The notes: generated by a model from the sequence alone, not told the origin. Counted from the stretch's first letter, positions 53,285 through 58,570 are shown. The stretch: 64,000 bases of DNA from Polyangiaceae bacterium (GCA_050287085.1 JBNKBE010000014.1:64001-128000); one strand, 5' to 3'. Translations and numbers: made by a program.

Positions 53285-54175
53285 ATGGACCGCGTCGACA
53301 CCCCTCCTGATCTCGAGCATCTTCTCGCGCTTGGGCTCGAGCACTACGGACGACGAGAGATCGCAGAAGCCATCACTTGTTGGCGCCGAGTTCTCGCTAT
53401 CGATCCAACCCATGCCGGAGCGCGTGACTACCTGGAAGCCGCCGGCGCGGACCCTGAACGGGGCATCCCCTCGGGGACACGCCACGCAGGTCAGGTAATT
53501 CATATCGAAACGGCTAGGGCACAACGGGGAGAAGGCAACGATGGCAAACGTGGTCGAGCCGTCGATGCCCCGGAGAGATCCGTGCATCCGGATGGTCCTG
53601 CGGCGCAGCGCGAGCTCGAGCAGTTGCTTGCGAACCGTAGGTTCGAGGAGGCCCTCACGCATCTGTACGCGGCCCGCAGCCGCCACCCGAATACGGCGTC
53701 CATTTCGCGAGGGATCCGGCTGGTCCGGGAAAAGCTGATCTCGATGTACGCTCAGAAGCTCGGAAGCCTCGATGTAGTGCCGCGCCGTACCGCGCGTGCC
53801 GCAGCCGAGGTCGACTGCGACTCGCTGCAGGTGCTTCCTCTTGTCGATGGCATTTCCTCATTTGAGGATATTCTTGCATCTTGTACATTGGGGCGCTGGG
53901 CCGCGCTCCGAACGCTCTGCCAGCTCCGGGAGCGCGGCGCCCTCACCTGTGCACCCGAGATACGCCCCATGCCTGCGCTGGTCCCCGCGAGTTCCAGACG
54001 GCCGAGCACCCCGCCGAACGACTACGAAGTCCGATTTCAAGCCGCAACGCGCGCATACTTAGCGCGCGACTACGACCTGGCCGTACGCCTATTTGAAGAA
54101 TGCGTCGCCATGAACCCTGCAGATACGCGAGCGCGGTATAACCTGCAGGCGTTGCAACGCCGCAAGAGGAGCTGA
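53285..54175 (+). CDS. TPR protein with central winged-helix-like domain
   Basis: N- and C-terminal TPRs (AITCWRRVLAIDP; AVRLFEECVAMNP); VLPLVDGISSFEDIL...LCQLRERGAL resembles the wHTH of DUF4388-type proteins. Start ATG 53285 (ORF opens at 53066). Confidence 0.75.
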   Translation: MDRVDTPPDLEHLLALGLEHYGRREIAEAITCWRRVLAIDPTHAGARDYLEAAGADPERGIPSGTRHAGQVIHIETARAQRGEGNDGKRGRAVDAPERSVHPDGPAAQRELEQLLANRRFEEALTHLYAARSRHPNTASISRGIRLVREKLISMYAQKLGSLDVVPRRTARAAAEVDCDSLQVLPLVDGISSFEDILASCTLGRWAALRTLCQLRERGALTCAPEIRPMPALVPASSRRPSTPPNDYEVRFQAATRAYLARDYDLAVRLFEECVAMNPADTRARYNLQALQRRKRS

Positions 54176-54981
54176 TGAAGGTACTTGCTGTTGTCAGTCA
54201 GAAGGGGGGCGTCGGGAAGACGACGCTTGCCCTAAACGTCGCGTATGCGTTGGCCAACCGTGGACTTCGAACAATCCTGATGGATACCGATCCCCAGGGT
54301 GCTGTCGGGTTATCCTTGGACAACATTTCCGCCTCCGAAGGGACCGTCGGCTGTATCCTACGCAGCGCACCGCCGCGAGCCGCGCTGCTGACCACGCGGC
54401 TACCGGAGCTGAGCATTCTTCCCTTTGGCAATGCGACCCCCGGAGAGGCGGCGAAGTTTCATAGCCAAGTCGAGGACGGGGGGGCGCTCACGCAACTGGT
54501 CGCGAGCGTCGCTGACAAGGCGGATGTCGTGATCATCGATACCCCGTCCGGTCTTTCAGGCAGTACGCTCGGTGCCCTGCGAACGGCTGACAGCGCGATA
54601 TCGCCGCTGCAGGCCGAACCGCTTGCGATGCGCAGCCTTCCTCAGCTGCTTGGAACCATTGCGGAACTACGGGAGAGCGGTCACCGTATTGAGTTGGTTG
54701 GTCTGGTGCTCAGCATGCTTCAGCAGCGCCAAGAGTCTTCTCTCTCTGTGGCCGAAGAGGCGTGGAAGCGACTACCGGGCGACCTTGTGTTGGAAACGAC
54801 GCTGCCACGCGATCCAAGCGTGCTCGACGCCAGCGCACTAGGACTGCCGCTGGGGCTCGTGAGCCGTCTGCGCCCCCCGCCCATCGCTCTGGTTTTCGAA
54901 CAGTTGGCCCTCGAATTGATACCGCGCCTGGAGCTTGCTCCGAACGGTGCTGAGGAGGCCCCAGTTGGCCTTTTTGCCTGA
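54175..54981 (+). CDS. ParA/MinD family ATPase (orphan, no parB)
   Basis: Deviant Walker A SQKGGVGKTT, DTDPQG, Walker B VIIDTP, PLQAEPLA; TGATG coupling to the upstream gene. Confidence 0.95.
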   Translation: MKVLAVVSQKGGVGKTTLALNVAYALANRGLRTILMDTDPQGAVGLSLDNISASEGTVGCILRSAPPRAALLTTRLPELSILPFGNATPGEAAKFHSQVEDGGALTQLVASVADKADVVIIDTPSGLSGSTLGALRTADSAISPLQAEPLAMRSLPQLLGTIAELRESGHRIELVGLVLSMLQQRQESSLSVAEEAWKRLPGDLVLETTLPRDPSVLDASALGLPLGLVSRLRPPPIALVFEQLALELIPRLELAPNGAEEAPVGLFA

Positions 54982-55540
54982 CGATCCCACTCTTAAACGG
55001 GTTCTCCAGCGGCTTCGCGCGCCAGCCGGCCCTGGCAAGCCACCTCGCTCCAGGGCCGACGACGAGGGCAACGCCCCGGAAGTTGCTCTCTCCCGCTCCG
55101 TGAGCGACACGCCTCCGTCGGCACAAGTGGCTCCCCCTCCCTCCCTCTTTCCGTTGGCTGACCTTTCGGCGCGTTTGGAGTCCGCAAGCAGTATGGAAGG
55201 ACGCCTGTCCGTGGTGGCGGAATGGCTGGAACAGAGCACCGACGCCAACGCAGCGTTCATCGCGGACGCCGAGGGACTGCCGCTGACCGAAACACGCGCG
55301 ACCGACCAAGTGGTGGCAGCGGCGGGAGCTGTACGCGAGGCCTTGGCTGGACTGCGGTCGATGATCCCTGATGCCGGTGCTGGCGTTATTCGCATGGAAT
55401 TGGGCGACGGAAACAAACTGGAACTATGCGAGTTCCGCTCCCCCTTGGGCACCCTATTTGTTGGACTGATCGGGGCCAGACGGAACCTCGATGAATGGCA
55501 GACCTGGTTAGGTCGAGCCTTCTCGCTCGCCGTCGGCTGA
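54965..55540 (+). CDS. Roadblock/LC7-like domain protein with Pro-rich N-terminus
   Basis: AAFIADAEGLPL hairpin typical of Roadblock folds; GAGGAGG RBS before TTG 54965; overlaps the parA stop. Confidence 0.6.
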   Translation: MAFLPDDPTLKRVLQRLRAPAGPGKPPRSRADDEGNAPEVALSRSVSDTPPSAQVAPPPSLFPLADLSARLESASSMEGRLSVVAEWLEQSTDANAAFIADAEGLPLTETRATDQVVAAAGAVREALAGLRSMIPDAGAGVIRMELGDGNKLELCEFRSPLGTLFVGLIGARRNLDEWQTWLGRAFSLAVG

Positions 55541-55541
55541 C

Positions 55542-56156
55542 GTGAGCGAGCGGAACACTGGAGGAGAAGTGACTGTAAGCAGTGAAGCAGTATTGCACCA
55601 AGCCCTTGAGGCCGTGCCATCTTTGAAGGCGGTCTTCGTAACGGCGATGCCCGACTGTCTGCTCTTCCTTTCCTGGGAGCGAGACGGACAAGGCACAGCG
55701 GCAGAGGACATCGCAGCGTATTTTGGTGATTTGATCCGAGCCAATCGTCAGGGCCTCAAAGCTCTGGGCACCTGGTCGGAAGAGATGCACGTCACCATCG
55801 AGGCCGACCAAGCACTCGTCGTCTTGCGCGAGCTCGGAACGGATTTCGTCGTAAGCTTCGTATTCGATCGCGCCTCTCCCCTCGGTATGATCCGACTGAA
55901 TGTGAGGCAGCTGGTGACGTTGATGCATAGCCACCTGCCCAAGGTCGAAGCAACAGAACGTCCGCGAGCCATCCGAGTGATCGAGTTCCTTCTGCGCTAC
56001 GCACCTGACCCTCACATGGCGCTGCAGCGTGTCGCGCTCAGAACCGGAGTCGAGTTGGAACGACTGGAACGCCCAGAAGGCCTTGAAAGCGACGAAACCT
56101 CACTGATCGAGCAGGCGACCTGCGACATTCTGGGACTAGAGAGCCTAGGGCTGTAA
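55542..56156 (+). CDS. Roadblock/LC7-like domain protein with C-terminal helical domain
   Basis: alpha-beta-beta-alpha-beta-beta-beta-alpha pattern ending FVVSFVFDRASPLGMIRLNVRQL; starts 1 bp after the previous stop. Confidence 0.7.
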   Translation: MSERNTGGEVTVSSEAVLHQALEAVPSLKAVFVTAMPDCLLFLSWERDGQGTAAEDIAAYFGDLIRANRQGLKALGTWSEEMHVTIEADQALVVLRELGTDFVVSFVFDRASPLGMIRLNVRQLVTLMHSHLPKVEATERPRAIRVIEFLLRYAPDPHMALQRVALRTGVELERLERPEGLESDETSLIEQATCDILGLESLGL

Positions 56157-56166
56157 GGGAGAAATC

Positions 56167-57432
56167 ATGGACGCACTGGAGCTCGGTCCGCTTCGACGCT
56201 ATCTCCTCGAACAAGAGTTGATGTTCTTGGCAGGGCAACCCGCAACCTACCACTGTCACCACTACAATCTCTTCCTCGATCAAACCATCGACGATGCCCT
56301 CGGCGTGGCAGACGCGACTCGACTCAAGACTCGGGCAGCGCGGGAAGCCACTTACCCCCTCATCGCAAACGCCTGTGAGCATGTGGGTGCCTCCACGCCG
56401 GCGGAGCGAACGCAAGTGGCCACTGAGCTATTTCGACTGATGGGGCACGGCCGACTCGATGTGCTAGCCGGCCACGATCAGGGGTCGGCCAAAGGCGCGT
56501 TTCTTCATTACAGCCATTCCTGGAATGAGAAATACGGCGCTAGCGTCCGGCGTCGCCACCCCGCTGACGCTTTCGCAAGCGGATTTATCTGCGCAGCTTC
56601 TGAGGTCGCCGAGGGACTGCCTTGCGGAACTCTGTGGGCTACCGAGGAGCGCTGTGCGGCTCTCAAAGAGCCCAATTGCTCGTTTGAACTCACGCGGGAT
56701 CCAGAGCCGGAAGCGGCGCGTATCCACGTGGGAGAGGCCGAGACACAGAGCGTTGTTGGCCCCGCCGGCGACGGCGTCGGCGAAGACGTGATTCAGCCGA
56801 TCGTAGCGGGCCTGAAGGCCTTCACCGCCACGGTCAGCGGCGACGCGCGCGGACTCATTCCCGCGTTCGGCGTGTTCGCAGCGATGCAGATGACGGGCTA
56901 CTACAACCGCATCAGCTACGATGCTGTGGAAGAGGTGGCAAGAAGGTCTCCCGCATCGGTGCCGGTACTCGAATCGCTGCTGAGGGAATCCGGTCACGTC
57001 TGCGTCTATCATACCTTCGGCGGGGTACTGCTGAGCCCTGAATGGGAGTCTCTCGTGGGGCCTCCTCAGGGTTCGCCACAGGACATCGTGGTCTGGTGCA
57101 TGGCCATTGCGCGAGGCTTCGGTTTCGGGCGCTGGCAACTTGCTGAGTTCGAAGAGAACAGGCGGCTCGTATTGCGGACCTCGTCGTCCTACGAGTCCGT
57201 CTACTATCGAACGCGACACGGGCTTGCTCAACGCCCCGTTGAGTACCTGTGGCAGGGAGCAGCGGTGGCTACAGCGCAGCTCGCGCATAGCGTATCATGG
57301 AAGGACAATCCAACCTTGAACGCCGAAAGCTACCAAGAGCTGTTCAAGCGCGGCATCAAGTGGAAGGCGGAACAGACCCAGGCGATAACAGCAGGGGACC
57401 CCGTCAGCGAAATTGTCGTAACGCGCGTTTGA
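56167..57432 (+). CDS. Tandem V4R (4-vinyl reductase)-like domain protein
   Basis: Two related halves (MGHGRL / FGFGRW; ADAFASG / VEYLWQG); first half ends EERC-x7-CSF; N-terminal YHCHHYN; GGGAG RBS. Confidence 0.72.
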   Translation: MDALELGPLRRYLLEQELMFLAGQPATYHCHHYNLFLDQTIDDALGVADATRLKTRAAREATYPLIANACEHVGASTPAERTQVATELFRLMGHGRLDVLAGHDQGSAKGAFLHYSHSWNEKYGASVRRRHPADAFASGFICAASEVAEGLPCGTLWATEERCAALKEPNCSFELTRDPEPEAARIHVGEAETQSVVGPAGDGVGEDVIQPIVAGLKAFTATVSGDARGLIPAFGVFAAMQMTGYYNRISYDAVEEVARRSPASVPVLESLLRESGHVCVYHTFGGVLLSPEWESLVGPPQGSPQDIVVWCMAIARGFGFGRWQLAEFEENRRLVLRTSSSYESVYYRTRHGLAQRPVEYLWQGAAVATAQLAHSVSWKDNPTLNAESYQELFKRGIKWKAEQTQAITAGDPVSEIVVTRV

Positions 57433-57448
57433 ACTGAGCGACACCGCC

Positions 57449-57811
57449 ATGGACGCTAGGTCACCCGGAGATAGCGACGACACCGACGTCCCGGACGACA
57501 CCTGCGTCGCTTTTCGACTGGGGCGAAGTTGCTATCGGGCGCTGAGCTGGGAGGCTCATCTCCCAGTGCTGGCGCCGGAGTCGCTCACCACGGCGCTCCG
57601 GCTCGCGGGGTTTGCTCCCGTGCAAGCCCCCGCTTTCGGTGACAAGCTCCTGCAGTTCGAGACCGAAGCCGGGCACCGTCTGTTGTGGGTGCCCGCCAGC
57701 GGGCGCTGCCAGCTGCGCTTGTCGTATCTTACGCTTCCCCCAGACCGTGAGGCGGTAGCCAGGCAACTCGGTCAACGCCTGGGCCAAGTCATTGCCGAAG
57801 CGTCAGCGTAG
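57449..57811 (+). CDS. Small hypothetical protein, last gene of the ParA/Roadblock/V4R operon
   Basis: ATG 16 bp after the V4R gene stop, same strand. Confidence 0.55.
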   Translation: MDARSPGDSDDTDVPDDTCVAFRLGRSCYRALSWEAHLPVLAPESLTTALRLAGFAPVQAPAFGDKLLQFETEAGHRLLWVPASGRCQLRLSYLTLPPDREAVARQLGQRLGQVIAEASA

Positions 57812-57832: not shown

Positions 57833-58570
57833 TCACTGAGCCTGCGCATCATTCGGCAGGGGTTTGAGCGCATCGCCGCTGTCCTGCTCGCCCCCCTCCC
57901 CTGACGGCCGCTCTGGGGACGGCCCAGCAGAGGGCACCGCGAGAGGTGTTGACCCCGCGGCGGCAGGCCCCTGAAGCTCGACCGCTGGAGCAGGATGCTC
58001 AGACCAAGGCGACGGCGGCGATAACAAGCCCGAGGCGATATCCCTTGGGGGCTCCGTCGGGCCCAGCCCAGGCCAAGGTGCAAGCAGCGTGGGTTGCTCG
58101 ATCGAGGGCTCGCTCACCTCGCGTCGCGGCACTGAGCCCTCCGAACGGTGCGCCGCACTGTGTTCAGCTATAAGCAGCAAGCGACGCACGTGCACGCGGT
58201 ATTCGTCCTGGGAGATGTCACCGTTGCCCAACGCCTCACAGAGATGAAAGAACGCTACCTCCAGTCGATAGCCGACGGTCGGAGCTTCGCCGCCCGAGTC
58301 ACCCTGTCCCCGGAGAAGCGGTACACTCAGAGCACCGGTACACGTTCTGACGCCCCGGCGCCCCGAACGAACCACCGTCACATGCCCCGCCGTTTCGTTG
58401 ACGTAGACACCGTAGTGGTCAACACGAAAGGTCGGAGTCTGCGGATGACAAGCGCTGACTAGCCCAACAGCCAGACAACCAAGGACCTTGCCACCAAGGC
58501 TCCCTCGATCGCAGCCTCTCCAGAAACGGGTCTGAAACGCGGAAAGCATGTGCTTCTGTGTTAGATACAA
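57833..58570 (-). CDS. Hypothetical lipoprotein with Pro-rich tail
   Basis: Lipobox VSAC; start uncertain. Confidence 0.55.
   Translation of the reverse strand: MYLTQKHMLSAFQTRFWRGCDRGSLGGKVLGCLAVGLVSACHPQTPTFRVDHYGVYVNETAGHVTVVRSGRRGVRTCTGALSVPLLRGQGDSGGEAPTVGYRLEVAFFHLCEALGNGDISQDEYRVHVRRLLLIAEHSAAHRSEGSVPRREVSEPSIEQPTLLAPWPGLGPTEPPRDIASGLLSPPSPWSEHPAPAVELQGPAAAGSTPLAVPSAGPSPERPSGEGGEQDSGDALKPLPNDAQAQ

Follow-up and report, generated by a model that had tools for sequence, protein, structure and literature searches.

A Polyangiaceae operon joining a ParA ATPase to Roadblock and V4R proteins as a candidate sensor-gated switch

The question raised by this locus is what a ParA ATPase does in an operon with two Roadblock-type proteins and a tandem V4R protein, and with neither parB nor a small GTPase gene. 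The locus occupies positions 53285-57811 of the window, i.e., the whole 64,000-nucleotide stretch of Polyangiaceae bacterium DNA analyzed here (GCA_050287085.1 JBNKBE010000014.1:64001-128000), and consists of six open reading frames (ORFs), all open and all on the + strand: gene 1, parA, rb1, rb2, the V4R gene and orf6. Pfam and fold matches agreed with the composition given in a first-pass annotation made from the sequence alone, in which the operon was seen either as a ligand-sensing module with ParA in the place of a small GTPase or as a Roadblock/V4R complex positioned by ParA. The answer favored here, which we hold to be about as probable as its opposite, develops the first of these: the operon would encode a sensor-gated ParA switch, with the V4R protein passing on its state, by way of the rb2/rb1 pair, to a helix of rb1 on ParA.

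Scanning GTDB with the single V4R protein sequence gave no matches, while the scan with a V4R alignment succeeded and returned 146 loci, of which the best 80 are referred to as V4R loci. The closest homologous loci are labeled as metagenome-assembled genomes of Polyangiaceae and other Myxococcota. In the 66 V4R loci with at least 2.9 kb of upstream DNA, parA was present in 56, rb1 in 58 and rb2 in 62, and orf6 lay downstream of the V4R gene in 73 of 76 loci. The order parA-rb1-rb2-V4R-orf6 was complete in 54 of the 63 loci with enough DNA, a conservation far beyond chance, and a gene-1-type protein was nearby in 39 of the 63. The six genes do not behave as a fixed unit: the place of gene 1 is variable, and ParA is dispensable to the sensor end. 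Queries with MglA (a profile of five MglAs) and ParB matched 0 of the 80 V4R loci, with the controls matching, and no ParB was found at the ParA-clade loci described below, where the control locus L289 matched. The reported absence of parB and of a small GTPase from the operon therefore stands, and the proposal that homologous operons always carry an MglA-like GTPase that was lost here did not agree with these loci. In one genome, the operon was matched twice, identically on two contigs (L028 and L029), a possible assembly duplicate.

The sensor end is regarded as a separable input module since some ParA-less loci keep rb2-V4R-orf6 and others have V4R-orf6 behind kinases. Specifically, rb2 was retained in the ParA-less loci L052, L077, L081 and L090, and likewise in L100 on a short contig, and the V4R gene and orf6 were found behind a PAS hybrid histidine kinase without any Roadblock gene in L076, L085 and L092. 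The loci L081 and L100, with rb2-V4R-orf6, are labeled as Methylococcaceae/Methyloprofundus, and no clade-level ParA was found in either, possibly incomplete, genome. In the more distant loci L034, L035 and L036, which likewise lack ParA and Roadblock genes, tandem V4R and a small ORF have PAS histidine kinases or a PAS-STAS protein as neighbors.

Loci were also sampled independently of V4R by a ParA alignment search (E<=1e-55), with only 6-10 candidates scored per genome. ParAs of the window clade were matched in 95 of 251 genomes of the family and 19 of 401 genomes of the phylum, and in 16 of 401 genomes of a second phylum. From the 151 rows listed, 59 loci were hand-picked across the score range, and the ParB-linked ParA of the window's own genome was added as the control. 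An rb1-like gene directly followed 48 of the 52 unfused ParAs in this sample, the exceptions being L263, L275 (where inspection by eye suggests an rb1-like gene), L277 and L287 (which the tree places outside the clade), and in the second-phylum sample rb1 was next to ParA in 16 of 19 loci. Judged by gene content, ParA and rb1 are the constant core of the gene family.

What changes around this core is the sensor. Of the 59 ParA loci, 19 carried ODP, 6 globin (in each case ahead of a fused ParA), 4 protoglobin and 15 V4R, of which Pfam confirmed 10 ODP, 6 globin and 3 protoglobin; the second sample (19 loci) contained 8 ODP, 1 H-NOX, 1 protoglobin and 3 V4R. Locus L291 keeps the order of the window with H-NOX in the V4R slot (ParA, rb1, PATAN-Roadblock, H-NOX; HNOB 2.7e-26). 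The same genome as the window has an ODP-type sister operon on the - strand of contig C15 at about 86800-91400 (L039:6838-11357), with genes for a PAS histidine kinase, a Roadblock protein, REC-DUF4388, a same-clade ParA, an rb1-like protein and an ODP di-iron sensor. The available text of PMC7319448 presents ODP as a sensor of oxygen and iron that signaling has recruited. By sequence and comparison, rb2, the tandem V4R protein and orf6 form a sensor module, for which the sister operons place other sensors beside the same ParA clade, usually with PATAN. N-terminal extensions were found in 7 of the 59 ParAs (PATAN fusions; DUF4388 matched in 3 of the 4 scanned). Single-domain globin followed by a PATAN-ParA fusion, without Roadblock, was seen in L267, L269, L270, L272, L273 and L274, and L271 is similar but without globin; this globin and PATAN-ParA unit forms a well-supported ParA subclade in the tree. 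A further layout (L239-L241 and L243-L246) has two TPR/PATAN genes, ParA, rb1 and a conserved 125-amino-acid, weakly Roadblock-like protein, with no sensor seen.

The proposed link between sensor and ATPase lies in rb1 (54965..55540, +, 191 amino acids), which consists of a predicted docking helix, a low-complexity Pro/Ser/Ala linker and a divergent, probable Roadblock domain. The fold of this last domain was weakly supported (Robl_LC7 E=0.21 for the window protein; hhalign to rb2 E=0.02; among 62 homologues, a LAMTOR5 match in 6 and Robl_LC7 in 2), and it is poorly conserved. The C-domain of rb1 is therefore only probably Roadblock. The conserved N-terminal motif and helix (54965..55018, +), the predicted ParA-docking segment, had hydrophobic residues at helix positions 16, 19, 20 and 23 in 98, 91, 84 and 89 of 99 sequences. 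The phase of parA and rb1 was compared in 103 pairs left after removal of odd lengths and masked rows, some of them near-duplicates; 102 pairs were in one relative phase, and 98 had an ATG 20-40 nt inside the ParA end (chance about 7%). The overlap cannot explain the helix pattern because the helix positions fall beyond the ParA stop. In addition, the motif persists without gene overlap in L086 and L087, and in the ParA-less loci L062 and L091 the rb1 Roadblock domain is kept and the N-terminal motif is absent.

Residues 1-40 of rb1 were modeled in complex with the ParA dimer, ATP and Mg, together with three controls. The model scored 0.71 (runs 0.71, 0.71 and 0.60) and the best control 0.03; of 157 solved pairs, 116 attained the score mark of the test, as did 2 of 215 mismatched ones, and these counts are only a rough guide for this job. 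The runs shared at least 75% of contacts, with a partner pLDDT (the predicted score in the local distance difference test) of 66-68. In the model, the ParA-contacting residues L10, L16, V19, L20, R22 and L23 are the conserved ones, and the contact surface comprises ParA residues 149-174 and 191-204 plus residue 221 of the other ParA copy. The model thus supports binding of the rb1 N-terminal helix in the usual ParA/MinD partner mode, not in the mode of MglB as GTPase-activating protein. The earlier proposal that a ParA switch serves a ligand-sensing module is supported, and the ParA link as modeled runs through the rb1 N-terminal helix.

The ATPase itself (parA, 54175..54981, +, 268 amino acids) is intact, as previously annotated. 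It matched Pfam AAA_31 at 7.5e-29, and its catalytic residues are kept across the clade (the signature residue Lys10 and Walker A Lys15 each in 97 of 99, Asp39 in all 99, and an invariant D122). The closest solved relatives are Soj-type ParAs, and NCBIfam MinD scores were far below cut-off. In a 48-row tree without the long-branch rows, the clade split from ParB-linked ParAs with support of 100/98, in which the bootstraps are rough and not fully settled; an earlier quick tree including the long-branch rows gave 90. The ParA phylogeny suggested earlier was thus obtained as far as a clade apart from ParB-linked ParAs, from rows that did not include the named MinD, PomZ, ParC, PpfA and McdA. Searching metagenomes with the ParA alignment brought up, for the most part, ordinary ParAs (28-37% identity), which served as an outgroup only. 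Markers of the PriB1 ParA clade, given in the available preprint text as Asn before Walker A and Gln two after DxD (Li et al. 2026), are mixed in the clade, with sensor-1 Gln41 in 51 of 54 and Ser8 before Walker A in 51 of 54. A cellulose-type BcsQ/BcsD role was rejected, as BcsQ was under cut-off and no cellulose synthase was found among the scanned neighbors, with the V4R protein having a BcsD fold likeness of Z 9.0.

Nucleoid binding was assessed at the four basic DNA-binding positions of T. thermophilus Soj, R182/R194/R208/R211 (PMC6393308, available part). Aligned to this protein, the clade ParAs had Lys or Arg in 57, 6, 93 and 1 of 99. The fourth position is that of an Arg on which DNA binding depends in two species, R238 in M. 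xanthus ParA (numbering offset deduced from chain 8ray) and R218 in B. subtilis Soj, and substitution of M. xanthus ParA R238 is reported to abolish association with the chromosome (PMC5703909, available part). The residue adjoining this position is Asp in 73 of 99 clade ParAs, and the median net charge of the clade is -7. Two of the four positions are lost in the window ParA, and nucleoid binding is doubtful; it is still conceivable because R185 and R212 are present, as is Arg at 230-233. An amphipathic C-terminal membrane-targeting helix of the MinCDE/FlhG type was not found in the clade tails, which have a median net charge of -3, Pro within the last 8 residues in 86 of 99 and a low hydrophobic moment. 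The acidic tail of the window ParA (54955-54978) ends in P-x-x-hydrophobic, a C-terminus kept clade-wide, including fusions overlapping no rb1 gene, and for this reason it is considered to be under its own selection.

These features bear directly on the best surviving alternative, in which an orphan ParA positions or segregates the sensory complex (Roadblock pair, V4R and orf6) through rb1 as an adaptor, in the way that ParC, PpfA or McdA handle their own cargos, and the sensor signals elsewhere without controlling ParA. Orphan ParAs are often encoded in the operon of their cargo and use an N-terminal partner peptide (PMC10241942, available part), which fits the docking model; the Soj-type relatives, the largely kept R185 and R212 and the occurrence of the sensor module without ParA would agree as well. 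On the other hand, the R238/R218 position and its acidic neighbor, the negative charge of the clade and the tail without a membrane helix all argue against it, and the two-gene globin and PATAN-ParA unit has no bulky cargo. The positioning role put forward in the first-pass annotation is thereby weakened in its nucleoid form, and the alternative as a whole is considered unlikely, at something above one chance in five.

The second alternative concerns rb2 (55569..56156, +, 195 amino acids), with a Roadblock domain at about residues 1-127 and a C-terminal helical domain at 133-190. Its AlphaFold2 model (mean pLDDT 80.5) aligned with MglB at Z 13.2 and a root-mean-square deviation (rmsd) of 2.9 over 122 residues; of the two Roadblock proteins annotated before, rb2 was confirmed and rb1 stays at probable. 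The protein is highly conserved (66% mean column identity), with a very conserved second helix. In a strict GTPase displacement, the helical face of rb1/rb2 would act on ParA as MglB acts on MglA, and the rb1 N-terminal helix would be a mere tether. The lack of MglA at the V4R loci and the conserved second helix of rb2 agree with this, the modeled rb1 helix is compatible with it as a second contact, and Li, Burroughs and Aravind (2026) read such neighborhoods in the available text as ParA replacing MglA. However, rb2 persists in ParA-less loci, so that its conserved surface need not face ParA, and the rb1 Roadblock domain is poorly conserved. In addition, MglA, MglB, ParA and rb1 occur together in L258, the only one of the 59 ParA-selected loci with MglA adjoining ParA. 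Displacement in this strict sense is accordingly judged quite improbable. The full arrangement in L258 (5010-8989) is Roadblock, MglA, a protein with a DnaA-type ATPase domain, clade ParA, rb1 and what looks by eye like a V4R gene.

The tandem V4R sensor-fold protein (56167..57432, +, 421 amino acids) gave a model with pLDDT 96, containing sensor-type halves only, without an AAA+ or DNA-binding domain. The N-half (residues 1-186) has a PoxR/MopR-type sensor fold (Z 14.9, rmsd 3.6, 180 residues aligned), and the matches of the whole protein were, in order, MopR/PoxR/DmpR, archaeal V4R, TRAPPC3 (Z 8.8-9.6), BcsD and H-NOX (Z up to 8.4), with no Pfam match to the HNOB (H-NOX) family for the window protein. 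The C-half was assigned less directly, by the repeated order of secondary structure and by the split homologue L033, in which both halves match V4R, while hhalign of the two halves against each other found no match; the double V4R annotated earlier is hence firm for the first half and indirect for the second. Residues E160, C163 and C171 are invariant (101 of 101), and D134 stands at the expected first-Cys place, by spacing relative to DmpR only, so that the N-half holds a probable Zn site (D134, E160, C163, C171). H29, C30, H32, H114 and C279 are likewise invariant (101 of 101), and H94 (96 of 101) and W119 (101 of 101) are the candidates for a phenol-holding His/Trp pair. Upstream of ParA-rb1, L290 (4967-9459) and L299 (4865-8876) have two single V4R-like genes and a class-V aminotransferase of the cysteine desulfurase type, a hint that V4R may be tied to sulfur or Fe-S chemistry. 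In L084, a frameshift lies close to the end of the V4R gene, and in L094 the gene is split.

This fold also enters a third alternative, in which the Roadblock pair and V4R, like MglC, RomY or a TRAPP-like platform, would control an MglA whose gene lies elsewhere, and ParA would only localize them. The genome has, outside the operon, two MglA genes (one beside MglB), a lone gene 1 paralogue and an extra ParA-like gene without ParB (as listed, C4:57544-58278, C7:87446-88600, C20:12692-13852 and C6:161584-162924), and L258 links MglA with ParA. GTPase platforms made up of V4R/Bet3 and Roadblock/longin folds are known in eukaryotes and Asgard archaea (PMC10933270, available part), in line with the TRAPPC3 match. 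Since the V4R protein is nearer to the MopR/PoxR sensor type than to Bet3, and MglA adjoins only 1 of the 59 ParA-selected and none of the 80 V4R loci, regulation in trans is very unlikely. A role in immunity or conflict, as Li et al. (2026) predict for ParA-V4R and ParA-wHTH systems, is barely credible. The V4R protein is patchily spread (14 of 61 relatives), and the available preprint text names V4R, wHTH and domains of profilin-longin-like type as companions of ParA in predicted immunity; against this, the operon has no effector domain, PADLOC gave two weak partial matches to ParA only, the proteins do not evolve fast but are conserved (62-66% mean column identity), the neighbors are gas sensors and two-component proteins, and no ParA-V4R fusion or asparaginase was seen.

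At the two ends of the operon, gene 1 (53285..54175, +, 296 amino acids) has N- and C-terminal TPRs around a central helical region. The TPR part of its TPR/wHTH annotation was borne out by matches in 29 of 34 homologues, and the wHTH had no match in Pfam or PDB. By comparison of loci, this position varies, and REC-DUF4388 (PATAN), TPR or kinase fusions take it in other operons. The product of orf6 (57449..57811, +, 120 amino acids) belongs to a family without a fold match, with 291 clusters at 50% identity, invariant R86, R90 and R100, and near-invariant C28 and W34. No match was found in Pfam or PDB, those in the Atlas were only to unnamed clusters, and no longer or fused form was found, which is weak evidence.

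Returning to the sensor-gated ParA switch, ATP-bound ParA would be bound by the N-terminal helix of rb1 as in the model, rb1 and rb2 would form a Roadblock heterodimer, and rb2 would hold the V4R protein and orf6, perhaps via its C-terminal helical domain. The ligand or redox state of V4R would then set the amount of rb1 helix offered to ParA and, through it, the lifetime of the ParA ATP-dimer. Because much of the DNA patch is lost and there is no membrane helix, ParA is proposed to act on a protein partner, the TPR/PATAN gene-1 product, instead of surfing the nucleoid, and this product would serve as the localization and output partner. Motility or polarity is proposed as the output, given that the pilus motor of cyanobacteria is bound by PATAN domains (membrane-localized in Synechocystis; bioRxiv 2021.06.11.447907, available part). 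Sensing of O2, NO or redox state by the V4R protein itself falls somewhat short of an even chance. Somewhat less probable is that the family forms a distinct signaling class, with a ParA switch working off DNA and off the membrane, a PATAN/TPR readout, gating by Roadblock proteins with interchangeable gas or redox sensors, and the tandem V4R protein as a new sensor of oxygen, NO or redox state based on a His/Cys metal center.

Several observations weigh against the switch. V4R domains usually bind aromatics or lipids. Since the docking site lies near the MinE site of MinD, the docking pass may be owed partly to likeness with solved MinD-MinE or ParA-partner complexes. ParA/MinD partners bind the ATPase via an N-terminal peptide that is typically positively charged (PMC10241942, available part), whereas the rb1 peptide is mainly hydrophobic, has a conserved Asp and carries Lys or Arg at position 22 in only 46 of 99. 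ParA largely keeps R185 and R212, as well as the basic stretch at 230-233. All 7 PATAN-ParA fusions are without rb1 and 10 of the 66 V4R loci are without ParA; therefore, neither the ParA-rb1 nor the ParA-sensor link is obligatory. In at least 7 loci (type B), no recognizable sensor accompanies ParA, rb1 and PATAN. The free copy of the rb2 C-terminal domain before the V4R gene in L031 was matched at E=0.14 only, so that the occurrence of this domain in free form ahead of V4R genes is no more than suggestive. Finally, the loci were hand-picked, with some near-duplicates and kin that are not independent, and the counts show recurrence, not frequency.

The junctions of the operon agreed with the earlier description, with TGATG at 54173-54177, a ParA/rb1 overlap of 17 bp and later gaps of 10 and 16 bp, except for the 1-bp gap between rb1 and rb2. 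The rb2 start is most likely GTG 55569 and not 55542, with GGAGGAG upstream and 112 of 119 homologues of 191-195 amino acids, and the gap is therefore 28 bp. For rb1, the start candidates are TTG 54965 (191 amino acids) and GTG 54947 (197 amino acids). The operon scan gave no sigma-70 promoter match and no excess of terminators. A divergent adenylosuccinate synthetase gene and a convergent ORF flank the operon; the latter (57833-58570, - strand, 245 amino acids) has a weak DUF6415 match (E=0.027) and lies outside the conserved operon.

If the family is a distinct signaling class as outlined above, gliding or twitching bacteria would have a route resembling aerotaxis that needs neither chemoreceptors nor a small GTPase. 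For many ParAs no partner is known, just as many MglB-like genes have no adjacent GTPase, and in both respects this family would offer an answer, with Roadblock proteins as ParA partners via a short helix. The exchange of V4R, H-NOX, ODP and globin points to oxygen or NO as controlling how surface-motile bacteria behave, and two uncharacterized protein families thereby gain a concrete hypothesis on their ligands; the operon may be an overlooked route from gas or redox cues to cell behavior. As for novelty, no paper describing a ParA-Roadblock-V4R system was found in the literature searched, where figure 2B panel 16 and the supplements of the preprint by Li, Burroughs and Aravind (2026, bioRxiv 10.64898/2026.10.19.760177) and the supplement of PMC4316618 may list such neighborhoods. 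The first-pass annotation had also known of no characterized system with this composition; this agrees with the literature searched, but the available text of the preprint already notes that some ParAs displace MglA in MglA-MglB-type systems.

Among known systems, the TRAPP core and Asgard TRAPPC3/Roadblock (PMC2253512 and PMC10933270, available parts) likewise combine a V4R/Bet3-fold pair, a Roadblock/longin-type pair and a nucleoside triphosphatase in one gene set, but the latter is ParA in the window instead of Rab, and V4R is nearer to the bacterial sensor type. The DmpR/MopR/PoxR phenol sensors (PMC7264223, available part) have the same fold as an intertwined pair, formed by one chain in the window, and the Glu/Cys/Cys residues of the N-half probably correspond to their zinc ligands. 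Unlike them, the window V4R protein has no AAA+ or DNA-binding domain, no Cys pair in the C-half, only 12-16% identity and extra invariant His/Cys residues. ParABS partition differs from the window in that no ParB gene was found beside ParA. ParA-ParB, MinD-MinE, McdA-McdB and ParC/PpfA (PMC10241942, available part) resemble it in the intact ParA and the partner gene directly downstream; the window partner would likewise dock an N-terminal helix on the ParA dimer, leaving the rest free for cargo, but it is a probable Roadblock protein with a hydrophobic rather than basic peptide and sensor neighbors.

MglA/MglB, with MglC and RomY (PMC9481161 and PMC4316618, available parts), shares the Roadblock fold, the PATAN neighbors and an occurrence mostly in myxobacteria, and MglB-like genes without an adjacent GTPase amount to 328 of 749 (PMC4316618). 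The window operon differs in having no GTPase, in Roadblock proteins with a predicted docking helix and a helical C-domain, and in its dedicated sensors. Also close are the neighborhoods with ParA displacing MglA (bioRxiv 10.64898/2026.10.19.760177), where ParA is likewise found beside MglB-like genes and read as a switch. The ParA-for-MglA concept is thus already in print, in two passing sentences of the available text, which do not mention the exchange of V4R, ODP, globin and H-NOX sensors, the docking helix or the lost DNA patch. The ParAs of those neighborhoods probably belong to the window clade or to a relative of it.

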